Shown in pieces: positions 2,922 to 4,080 of a stretch of DNA of 9,473 nt. The stretch lies in the IMG/VR virus record IMGVR_UViG_2703718801_000021, positions 1 to 9,473 of that record. One strand, written 5' to 3'. Position numbers and translations under genes: made by a program. Origin of the DNA: a virus (taxonomy: Duplodnaviria; Heunggongvirae; Uroviricota; Caudoviricetes). A model generated the notes under the pieces. The model was not told the DNA's origin, did no database searches, and saw only the letters and a list, made by a program, of their open reading frames with translations. Every line of letters starts with the position of its first letter. Position 1 is the first letter of the stretch.

Positions 2922-3635
2922 TCACTCTCCTTTGATGCGAATGCCAGCGGCGCGCTCGGCTTCACTTTGTTCCCAAAACCACTTGTGAAGCGCCATAAGC
3001 TTTTCGTCAATCGGTGCATATTTGCGATTAAAGTAGGCCTGAGCATCTTTCTCAGATTCGTCCGGTAATTCGCCAGGGCCAAACAGTGTGTTATAAATCC
3101 ATGCTAGTCCGCTCTTAGCGTCGCCAGTTGCCTGCCATTCGATAATGGCAGCCTGCATGACCAGAATGTTTTTCCCGATTAATAGGTCCAGTTCTTTGTA
3201 CCGGTTGCGGATGTATGCATTCTCGCTTTGTAATTTTGCGTTGCGCTTTTCTGAGGCTTCAAGTAACGCCTGCTTATCGCGTAGAGCTTCTTCCAGTTCA
3301 GCAACATGGCATTCACTATCAATAAGGTTGTTCTCTGCTGCTTCAAGCTCAACACGCAGCTTCCCAACCGTTAGCGCAATATCCTCGTTCTCCTGGTCGC
3401 GGCGTTTGATGTATTGCTGGTTTCTTTCCCGTTCATCCAGTAGTGCCAAAGCAATCTTTGGATTAAAGGCAGCAATAAATTCAGCGTTGTTTTTCAGGAC
3501 GTGTTGCGCAATGGCCTGACTACTTAGTCGGACCTCATAACCACGTGCGCCACGGTGTGGTTTATATGAGTCCCAGTCTCCCCACGTTGCTTTCTCTGCC
3601 GCCTCACGCAGTGCCTGGTAATTAATTTTGCTCAC
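2922..3635 (-). CDS. Ead/Ea22-like protein, 237 aa, with a coiled-coil central region
   Basis: N-terminus [17 protein letters not shown] plus ..AAFNPKIALALL matches the conserved N-terminal module of Ead/Ea22-like prophage proteins (from memory). The central part is heptad-like (..ALTVGKLRVELEAAENNLIDSECHVAELEEALRDKQALLEASEKRNAKLQSEN..). The start codon is GTG at 3635, preceded by AGGAGGCA with a 7-nt spacer. Confidence 0.75.
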   Translation of the reverse strand: MSKINYQALREAAEKATWGDWDSYKPHRGARGYEVRLSSQAIAQHVLKNNAEFIAAFNPKIALALLDERERNQQYIKRRDQENEDIALTVGKLRVELEAAENNLIDSECHVAELEEALRDKQALLEASEKRNAKLQSENAYIRNRYKELDLLIGKNILVMQAAIIEWQATGDAKSGLAWIYNTLFGPGELPDESEKDAQAYFNRKYAPIDEKLMALHKWFWEQSEAERAAGIRIKGE

Positions 3636-4080
3636 TGACTGCCTCCTTCTTAATCAGTTTACACAGGTGCTCCACAGCCACAGAGAGTGCATCCACCGCT
3701 CGTTTATCCAGACGCGGGGCCAGAGCAAGCAGTTCATTTATTGCAATCTGAATACCATGCTCCGCCGCCAGCGCCGCGCGATTGCTCTCCAGCTCTGCAA
3801 TTTGGCACATGGCATCAATATTTTTGTCCTCCAGGCGCTTAATTTCGCCTAGGAGGTCCAGCGCAACTTTTGGTGGGATAGCCGCGATATAACGGGCATT
3901 GGCACTAGCGTTCCTCTGTCCATCAGTACCAGGCCAGTCAATAAAGTATCCGCAATGCCTACCCTCAGACGTGCGCGCAGGATAAATGCCGTTATGGCCC
4001 GGCAAAATATATGCTACCCATTCATCTTGCGTTGCCTGTTTCGCCGCCTCGCGCAGTTCTTTATAGTTAATTTCGCTCAC
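3622..4080 (-). CDS. Ead/Ea22-like protein paralog, 152 aa
   Basis: N-terminus [17 protein letters not shown] and ..[12 protein letters not shown] share the module of the downstream paralog. GTG start at 4080 is preceded by AGGAGGCA with a 7-nt spacer. The 3' end overlaps the next gene's start by 14 nt. Confidence 0.75.

Follow-up and report, generated by a model that had tools for sequence, protein, structure and literature searches.

Two adjacent Ead/Ea22-like genes of a lambdoid prophage, probably assembled as mosaics by recombination between phages

How do two neighbouring phage genes come to begin almost alike and end quite differently? The question is posed by a 9,473-nucleotide (nt) stretch of a virus of the class Caudoviricetes (positions 1 to 9,473 of IMG/VR record IMGVR_UViG_2703718801_000021), called here the window, in which two genes of the Ead/Ea22 family, gene A and gene B, follow one another on the minus strand (Table 1). 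A reading made from the letters alone, referred to below as the sequence-only reading, had presented them as tandem paralogs in which a constant N-terminal adaptor runs into completely divergent C-terminal parts, and had likened them to polymorphic effectors. We found that both genes belong to the family, that they are mosaic, that they meet at a junction of definite anatomy, and that such genes recur in tandem arrays. The explanation that we consider probable is that A and B are adjacent, translationally coupled mosaic members of the family, assembled by inter-phage recombination at short conserved linkers.

Both open reading frames (ORFs) were confirmed at the positions claimed for them on the minus strand, each with a GTG as start, the first codon that could serve as one. 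The start region is AAGGAGGCAAGCAGTGAGCGAAATTAAC in gene A and AAGGAGGCAGTCAGTGAGCAAAATTAAT in gene B, both GTGs standing behind AAGGAGGCA, and from -14 to +51 the two were identical at 50 of 65 bases (39 of the first 51 coding bases), compared with 32.5 ± 1.3, and at most 36, in shuffled sequences over the same 65 bases. BLASTP aligned the two products with E=2e-12, at 36% identity and with large gaps, and both passed the 27-bit gathering threshold of PF13935 (Ead_Ea22), gene B with 110.1 bits over residues 2-124 and gene A with 64.5 bits over residues 2-105. The N-terminal similarity is thus significant, and the similar start regions and the common Ea22 framework with different C-terminal parts, all proposed by the sequence-only reading, were borne out.

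Adjacency, common orientation and the likeness of the start regions could have been left by a recent local tandem duplication followed by divergence, with the 60-bp start regions driving unequal or ectopic exchange between the copies. This origin turned out to be very improbable. The longest exact DNA match between A and B outside their overlap is 9 nt, the Shine-Dalgarno sequence AAGGAGGCA; of the 11 residues that are identical within the second shared segment, NAxxIAAxxPKxALxLL, 9 are encoded by different codons, and synonymous sites are saturated; the low protein identity and the large alignment gaps point the same way. The closest relatives of the two genes differ, those of gene A lying on ~90-kb plasmids and those of gene B in lambdoid and Shiga toxin (Stx) prophages, and the same pair of an A-form and a B-type N-terminus is already present on a plasmid. 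Genes A and B therefore appear to be anciently diverged relatives: as tandem paralogs they are real, adjacent family members, but not a fresh duplication, and because the longest exact match is so short they would be a poor recombination substrate for each other, not the ready one that had been proposed.

Gene B, for its part, is the ea22 gene of this prophage. It shares with lambda ea22 (protein NP_040612) the Pfam family, the start GTGAGC(G/A)AAATTAA, the position between the recombination genes and xis/int, and the three-part plan, and the first 104 residues of its product are 55% identical to lambda Ea22. Residues 64-98 coincide with residues 40-74 of lambda Ea22 at all 35 positions (LLDERERNQQYIKRRDQENEDIALTVGKLRVELE), and the terminal AGIRIKGE, with its (K/R)GE tripeptide, is encoded by the same DNA as in lambda, where ea22 starts with GTGAGCGAAATTAAC and ends with GGCATTCGCATCAAAGGAGAGTGAGAT. 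The differences from lambda lie in the N-terminal core (N-core), which is much shorter there, in the single copy of the lambda gene, which has no coupled gene after its KGE end, and in the C-terminal domain (CTD). The lambda CTD (PDB 8DSX) is a mixed alpha-beta domain with an HRYYGVGG loop, to which that of gene B is unrelated; in a PDB search, a profile of gene B homologues against 8dsx_A gave a nonsignificant E=0.46. The match of gene A to lambda Ea22 is confined to the first 21 residues.

The C-terminal half of gene B belongs elsewhere. Its residues 99-237 are identical to residues 49-187 of Ehly2 (the "enterohemolysin 2"-associated ORF of phage C3208; P0243) at 139 of 139 positions (100%), and this Ehly2-type module recurs, 94-100% identical and with many different heads, in at least 120 proteins among the matches listed. 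The Ea22 protein of Stx phage 933W is annotated "similar to enterohaemolysin 2-associated ORF", and the DNA of ORF7 of BP-4795 is 99.5% identical to positions 2700-3448 of the window. These proteins differ from gene B in the N-terminal core and the proximal coil, the 187-amino-acid (aa) Ehly2 having another head and the same CTD being preceded by another N-core in the 256-aa forms, and the four-heptad segment aa 101-128 of gene B (28 aa) is missing from 209-aa forms. AlphaFold2 modelling of gene B was consistent with the Ea22 plan of an N-terminal domain, a long central coiled coil and a separate CTD: helices 6-17 and 39-56 were predicted around a poorly modelled core, followed by a helix at 59-170 with a predicted local distance difference test score (pLDDT) >90 and by a helical CTD of low confidence.

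The distribution of these pieces among other genomes was as uneven as their kinship. The whole 1.6-kb stretch around both genes was found in 2 of 5,426 complete Escherichia coli genomes and pieces of it in 2,866, while gene A together with the gene B N-terminus was at least 80% complete as a block in 15. A blastn scan of window positions 2700-4300 against the fetched loci gave 140 distinct high-scoring segment pairs (HSPs), the ends of which clustered in eight places (4100-4081, 3940-3921, 3760-3741, 3660-3621, 3600-3581, 3480-3441, 3360-3321, and 2960-2901). The starts of 40 of the 140 fell in 4100-4081, of 29 in 3660-3621, and of 27 in 3500-3441, the ends of 31 in 3600-3581 and of 28 in 3360-3321, and 2960-2901 held 19 starts and 19 ends. 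HSP coverage collapsed over the gene B N-core (3584-3489) and over the distal coil and CTD.

What lies on either side of these breakpoints is freely combined. The gene B CTD (94-100% identical) stands behind more than 20 different heads, one of them a DUF550 head; at least three alternative N-cores precede the same downstream sequence of gene B, and its own N-core is paired with at least four other C-terminal parts. The A-type N-terminal part (aa 1-108) is joined to the short tail, to a lambda-type CTD (on another A-type protein, P0089, not in this window), or to six proximal and eight distal sub-modules combined in 12 ways around a PATDAFLAE linker. C-terminal parts thus swap independently, as had been suspected, and module exchange is indeed observed, its partners being alleles from other phages and plasmids rather than the copies A and B; the constant N-terminal adaptor did not survive the comparison, being itself a mosaic in which two conserved helices flank a hypervariable core. 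It is well supported by these patterns that exchange would act between genomes and at three levels, those of the N-core, the coil length, and the CTD.

Lambdoid phages carry conserved gene-boundary sequences and exchange modules, as formulated in Botstein's modular theory and exemplified by the boundary sequences of the nin region. The Ea22 loci resemble them in that short conserved stretches flank nonhomologous cassettes and breakpoints pile up there. They differ in two respects. Some Ea22 linkers (helix 2, LEAA, PATDAFLAE) lie within the gene, so that exchange takes place at the level of domains and sub-domains, and the Ea22 boundaries are also protein-coding and carry a ribosome-binding site.

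This double use is plainest at the junctions between the genes. Over 69 distinct contexts the start-region consensus was AGGAGGCAacCA before the GTG, followed by GTGAGCaAaATTaAcTAtCAgGcACTGCGtGAGGcGGCgGA (GTGAGC...); upstream of gene A the corresponding sequence is cgtAAAGGAGGCAAGCA. The upstream half encodes the last residues of the preceding gene (generally ..QLRKGGNQ*, here MWRKGGKQ*) and carries the Shine-Dalgarno sequence, the TGA stop of that gene overlaps the GTG start, and the downstream half supplies the codons of the first helix. Conservation was 0.75 at third codon positions and 0.89-0.90 at first and second positions, so the first helix is constrained as a protein and not merely as DNA. 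The conservation of the start region is thus accounted for by a triple role, as an upstream C-terminal peptide, as a ribosome-binding site with overlapping stop and start, and as a first helix.

The 3' end of gene B is built likewise: IRIKGE* is encoded by ATCAAAGGAGAGTGA, which one base separates from the ATG of the following gene, while the whole end ..ERAAGIRIKGE* corresponds to GGCATTCGCATCAAAGGAGAGTGAgATG. The "+GE" end as such is encoded by AAAGGAGAGTGA (2918-2945; 848-875 in our lambda locus, L006). A coupled downstream start was found for 52 of 55 ORFs ending in (K/R)G(E/D) or KGGE, in each case 0-2 nt past the stop, for 46 of 48 ending in KGGxQ, and for all 15 short-form ORFs of the fetched loci, in which the next GTG lies at -13 and gives a 14-nt overlap with a second Ea22 gene. 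Lambda ea22, which keeps the sequence without a coupled downstream gene, is an exception. What the "+GE" motif signifies was stated to be unknown by Dydecka et al. (PMC7093339). These counts suggest that the conserved terminal peptides (RKGGNQ and KGE/"+GE") are most simply embedded ribosome-binding sites of coupled downstream genes.

Gene A fits the Ea22 three-part plan only partly, its AlphaFold2 model showing helix 6-15, two strands, helix 52-67, and a hairpin of helices 70-123 and 126-151 at about pLDDT 90, without a separate CTD; contrary to the sequence-only reading, gene A does not run straight into an unrelated tail. Its product ends in SEQN rather than (K/R)GE, the last nine residues of the tail (KKEAVSEQN) being read from junction cassette 2 one base off the usual frame. 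An 80-residue query from gene A retrieved 138 cluster representatives (50% identity), nearly always as residues 1-80 of proteins of 66-381 aa, and the main location of its type of N-terminal part is ~90-kb plasmids that are non-mobilizable and have P1-like matches. A fold search with the model against the PDB returned nothing at E<=0.001 (best hit E=0.61, mitoribosomal helices), and a chorismate-mutase-like NCBIfam match on the coiled coil, at 18.8 bits against a cut-off of 73, was judged to be due to chance.

Diverged A-forms precede at least eight different second Ea22 genes, both after abc2-DUF2737, as here, and in the nin region, where other Ea22 relatives are found too. The 92-kb plasmid NZ_LR890273.1 carries the same pair, a 152-aa A-form with the 14-nt overlap followed by a gene whose first ~67 residues closely resemble those of gene B. 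When 90 loci were scanned with a hidden Markov model of our own for the Ea22 N-terminal part, 66 held two Ea22-type ORFs, 4 held three, 18 held one, and 2 held none, that is, two or three in 70 of the 88 loci with a match, a fraction that is no population estimate because similarity to gene A was the criterion for choosing the loci, of which many are redundant. Most tandem pairs overlap by 4 nt (GTGA), and NCBI's prokaryotic genome annotation pipeline (PGAP) annotates Ea22 arrays of two or three elsewhere. The tandem arrangement is clearly a common one.

Several points weigh against reading A and B as two working mosaic genes. PGAP accepts only positions 3757-4080 of gene A, as a pseudogene "incomplete; missing C-terminus", and does so in two genomes (7058-7381 in locus L001 and 2917-3240 in L002). 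The 35-codon tail shows no measurable purifying selection, with a ratio of nonsynonymous to synonymous substitution rates (dN/dS) of ~0.85-2.3, a value based on at most 10 substitutions and too few to decide the matter, and a tblastn search of 50,697 phage records with the tail as query returned no match. The N-terminal domains of A and B were modelled at a pLDDT of only 49-67 and the gene B CTD at <55, the tandem count is subject to the selection of loci just described, and the yeast two-hybrid screens reported in PMC10834534 yielded no Ea22 partner. Together with the out-of-frame last nine residues, the first three of these points would suit the view, which is that of PGAP, of gene A as a dead remnant, an Ea22 gene truncated by an inserted junction cassette plus a new Ea22 gene and carried along passively.

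We consider a dead remnant unlikely. The ORF of gene A is intact, without frameshift or internal stop, has a strong Shine-Dalgarno sequence, and is coupled through GTGA to the gene upstream. Its full length is matched, at 71-98% identity, by about 65 protein clusters of 149-152 aa, with no disrupted copy among them save contig-end fragments, and the 14-nt overlap was kept in all 15 short-form copies of the fetched loci. The N-terminal part has a dN/dS of 0.30-0.52 against five diverged copies and of 0.30-0.33, at a dS of 0.55-0.78, among the short forms, and the tail is predicted with confidence as a helix packing on the coiled coil. Other NCBI records list proteins of identical length as ordinary ead/Ea22-like genes, and the family, a mosaic one, is annotated inconsistently. 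A recent frameshift in gene A was ruled out, the other two frames of 3600-3800 being full of stops, and inspection of the overlap revealed no canonical slippery heptamer for a programmed A-to-B frameshift. On the question whether the second copy is a pseudogene the findings are mixed rather than refuting, the PGAP flag and a tail with no measurable constraint standing against an intact ORF with many full-length relatives; the pseudogene call looks like an artefact of aligning a mosaic family, and the tail is at most putatively functional.

Under the mosaic explanation, gene B would have been assembled from a hypervariable core between two conserved helices, a proximal coil that, like the second helix, is as in lambda Ea22, extra heptads, an Ehly2-type CTD, and a lambda-like AGIRIKGE end. 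Gene A would be a short-form, plasmid-type relative made up of an N-terminal domain and a helical hairpin, which moves as a unit with the start junction of the next Ea22 gene. The pair itself would have been put together by phages recombining at short conserved linkers and not by local duplication.

The function of Ea22-family proteins is poorly defined, as had been noted and as the literature agrees (PMC7093339, PMC10834534). The three-part architecture and a tetramer have been described for Ea22 (PMC10834534, PMC7093339), and ea22 deletions have revealed a pro-lysogenic phenotype (PMC7093339); tetramer and pro-lysogenic effect are known only for the proteins of lambda, P27, and Stx phages. 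Ehly2 encodes no hemolysin and instead causes release of the host cytolysin ClyA (Oscarsson et al. 2002, cited in PMC7093339), so that its "hemolysin" name is a misnomer. By analogy with these relatives, A and B would be made from pL within minutes of infection or induction, would form coiled-coil oligomers that display their variable parts, and may tilt phage development toward lysogeny (PMC7093339, PMC10834534), and the Ehly2-type domain, when its gene is cloned, could perturb the cell and lead to ClyA release.

The combinatorial C-terminal diversity behind a conserved N-terminal framework, the small coupled ORF after gene B, and the ClyA release caused by the cloned Ehly2 determinant, which perturbs cells, could also be taken as marks of a polymorphic effector or toxin-like system, with a constant adaptor, variable effectors, and a cognate protective gene downstream. 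Like CdiA-CT and Rhs toxins, A and B have swappable C-terminal parts and a conserved swap point. The resemblance proved to be one of architecture only, and such a system is highly unlikely here. Neither protein yielded a secretion, delivery, or toxin domain, PF13935 being the only Pfam domain and no NCBIfam model exceeding its cut-off, and there was no credible defence-system match; unlike polymorphic toxins, the two would be cytoplasmic early phage proteins with no secretion apparatus and no co-varying immunity gene. The downstream ORF is not tied to the CTD, which occurs with the 63-aa ORF in BP-4795 and without it in nine further hits (H42-H50, which begin at the gene B stop) and in locus L090, and the same N-core is found with CTDs that precede other genes. 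The N-terminal part is hypervariable too, and the phenotypes of ea22 deletions concern the phage's own lysis-lysogeny decision (PMC7093339).

One model of the defence-system database PADLOC did match: PDLC02890, labelled "DpdH" (127 positions), aligned with aa 126-224 of gene B (2961-3257) at E=1.6e-36. We rejected the gene B CTD as a DpdH, since the real DpdH/I are described as BrxC-like and would sit in a dpdA-K cluster with 7-deazaguanine genes, and the annotation of the region includes no dpd gene. Contamination of the model is probable, and it could give false defence-system calls on prophages.

Extreme module shuffling at sub-domain resolution, in genes directly downstream of erf/abc2, might also reflect an arms race, in which Ea22 arrays would be fast-evolving counter-defence or host-manipulation scaffolds, their oligomeric coil displaying exchangeable cores and CTDs that bind targets of the host or of rival phages. 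A 2026 preprint describes this region as an anti-immunity hotspot and mentions EaD/Ea22 proteins fused to the OLD inhibitor Oad2 (EaE-like), and family CTDs include DUF551 and DUF550 fusions. No Ea22 protein, however, has a demonstrated target or anti-defence activity, the sole genetic phenotype is a modest pro-lysogenic effect, and the N-terminal part is under purifying rather than positive selection overall. The reading has a low probability; judged from location and variability only, the arrays may be such scaffolds. A broader joint claim would make Ea22 genes a dedicated cassette-exchange system of temperate phages and phage-plasmids, whose dual-purpose junctions and in-gene linkers reshuffle N-cores, coil lengths, and CTDs to yield tandem, possibly hetero-oligomeric counter-defence or host-manipulation effectors, with the short A-form as partner or regulator of the next Ea22 gene. 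Taken as a whole, it strikes us as quite unlikely.

Earlier work has already described the Ea22 family with its three-part plan and its "mosaic organisation", as well as eight cases in which one genome holds two variants (Goddard et al. 2024; PMC10834534), and RefSeq annotates both genes as ead/Ea22-like. Variants V1-V3 of Stx phages, like the genes studied here, have conserved N-terminal and coiled-coil parts and dissimilar CTDs. Compared with the mosaic described in the excerpts of that paper, the window and its relatives add a hypervariable N-core, indels in multiples of a heptad, abutting coupled arrays, a short A-form, and an explanation by junction cassettes. What we add is a finer placing of the module boundaries, coupled arrays that include the short A-form, a reading of the termini as junction cassettes, and the finding that the identity to Ehly2 is exact; this is detail on a known kind of gene and reveals no new kind of system.

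Such detail matters in that Ea22 is among the last uncharacterised early genes of lambda-like phages and influences the lysis-lysogeny choice of Stx phages, and the finer resolution of the blocks guides experimenters in choosing segments to exchange or remove. Since Ea22 genes commonly abut in arrays of two or three, single-gene deletions may miss redundancy or hetero-oligomers. Automatic annotation, moreover, mislabels the family, as with the "pseudogene" of gene A and the "DpdH" of the gene B CTD.

Table 1. Genes, protein modules, and junctions discussed in the text (window coordinates)
Feature	Coordinates	Strand	Description
Gene A, short-form Ead/Ea22-like	3622..4080	-	152 aa, GTG start, PF13935, AlphaFold2 pLDDT 74
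Gene A N-terminal part, aa 1-108	3757..4080	-	helix 1, variable beta core (aa 18-59), helix 2, short coiled coil
Gene A tail, aa 109-152	3622..3756	-	predicted to fold back as a helix
Gene B, ea22 allele of the prophage	2922..3635	-	237 aa, GTG start, PF13935
Gene B hypervariable N-terminal core, aa 18-49	3489..3584	-	covered by only 4-5 of 140 HSPs
Gene B conserved linker island	3330..3488	-	includes the 35 aa identical to lambda Ea22; HSP breakpoints at both ends
Gene B Ehly2-type module, aa 99-237	2925..3341	-	distal coiled coil and CTD; identity to Ehly2
Junction cassette 1, upstream half (cgtAAAGGAGGCAAGCA before GTG)	4081..4100	-	similarity boundary common to many loci
Junction cassette 2	3585..3660	-	Shine-Dalgarno AAGGAGGCA 3640-3648; GTG of gene B 3635-3633; TAA of gene A 3624-3622; gene B helix-1 codons
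3' junction cassette of gene B (..ERAAGIRIKGE* = GGCATTCGCATCAAAGGAGAGTGAgATG)	2910..2960	-	Shine-Dalgarno and start of the next gene
DUF2737 gene	4077..4244	-	Pfam PF10930, E=8.8e-32
63-aa ORF	2729..2920	-	phrog_1222, function unknown; PGAP coding sequence; translationally coupled to gene B
DUF551 gene, two genes downstream of gene B	2136-2726		matches phrog_60

The 1.6-kb stretch around both genes recurs with 100% identity in the chromosomes of two strains isolated in Okinawa from bovine faeces, E. coli OkiPb01680 and OkiPb01700, in which the lambdoid prophage is integrated beside mlrA. The order on the minus strand is N, ral, erf, an unnamed gene, abc2 (anti-RecBCD), DUF5405, DUF2737, gene A, gene B, the 63-aa ORF, DUF551, DUF4222, xis, and int, which places A and B, like lambda ea22, in the early-left (pL) operon, with the recombination genes on one side and xis/int on the other. 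Successive genes overlap by 4 nt (ATGA), 4 nt (GTGA), and 14 nt, and are then separated by gaps of 1 and 2 nt; at the GTGA overlap, the last codons of the DUF2737 gene (..MWRKGGKQ*) hold the Shine-Dalgarno sequence of gene A. No sigma-70-like promoter was found in 2000-5000, where 4.3 were expected by chance, one weak terminator-like hairpin within gene A was not above chance, and Rfam gave zero matches in the whole window. Judged from this layout, A and B appear to sit in one tightly packed early-left transcription unit.

Phrog_60 is matched both by the DUF551 gene and by the N-terminal part of gene B, and elsewhere DUF551 is fused to an Ea22 N-terminus (a 368-aa protein in locus L010). Because of this fusion and the common phrog_60 match, the neighbouring DUF551 gene may be a detached Ea22-type C-terminal module. 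The DUF5405 protein (4241-4534) matched phrog_154, "replication initiation protein", with E=1.7e-32, a label that seems unlikely for a 97-aa early-left accessory gene and calls for caution.

The window contains no stx gene. The integrase of the prophage (75-1361 and beyond; 2654-3355 in L001) directly adjoins mlrA (yehV), a known integration site of Stx-type prophages. RefSeq annotates a HigB-family toxin gene with a helix-turn-helix partner in the immunity region of the prophage, past the repressor and outside the window (L001 11546-12887). A sister prophage, in E. coli OkiPb01684 from the same sampling, carries the insertion sequence IS100 (istA/istB) between the DUF5405 gene and abc2 (L002 3713-5514), immediately upstream of the same block (gene A with the N-terminus of gene B), and its gene B has a different C-terminal part (224 aa).

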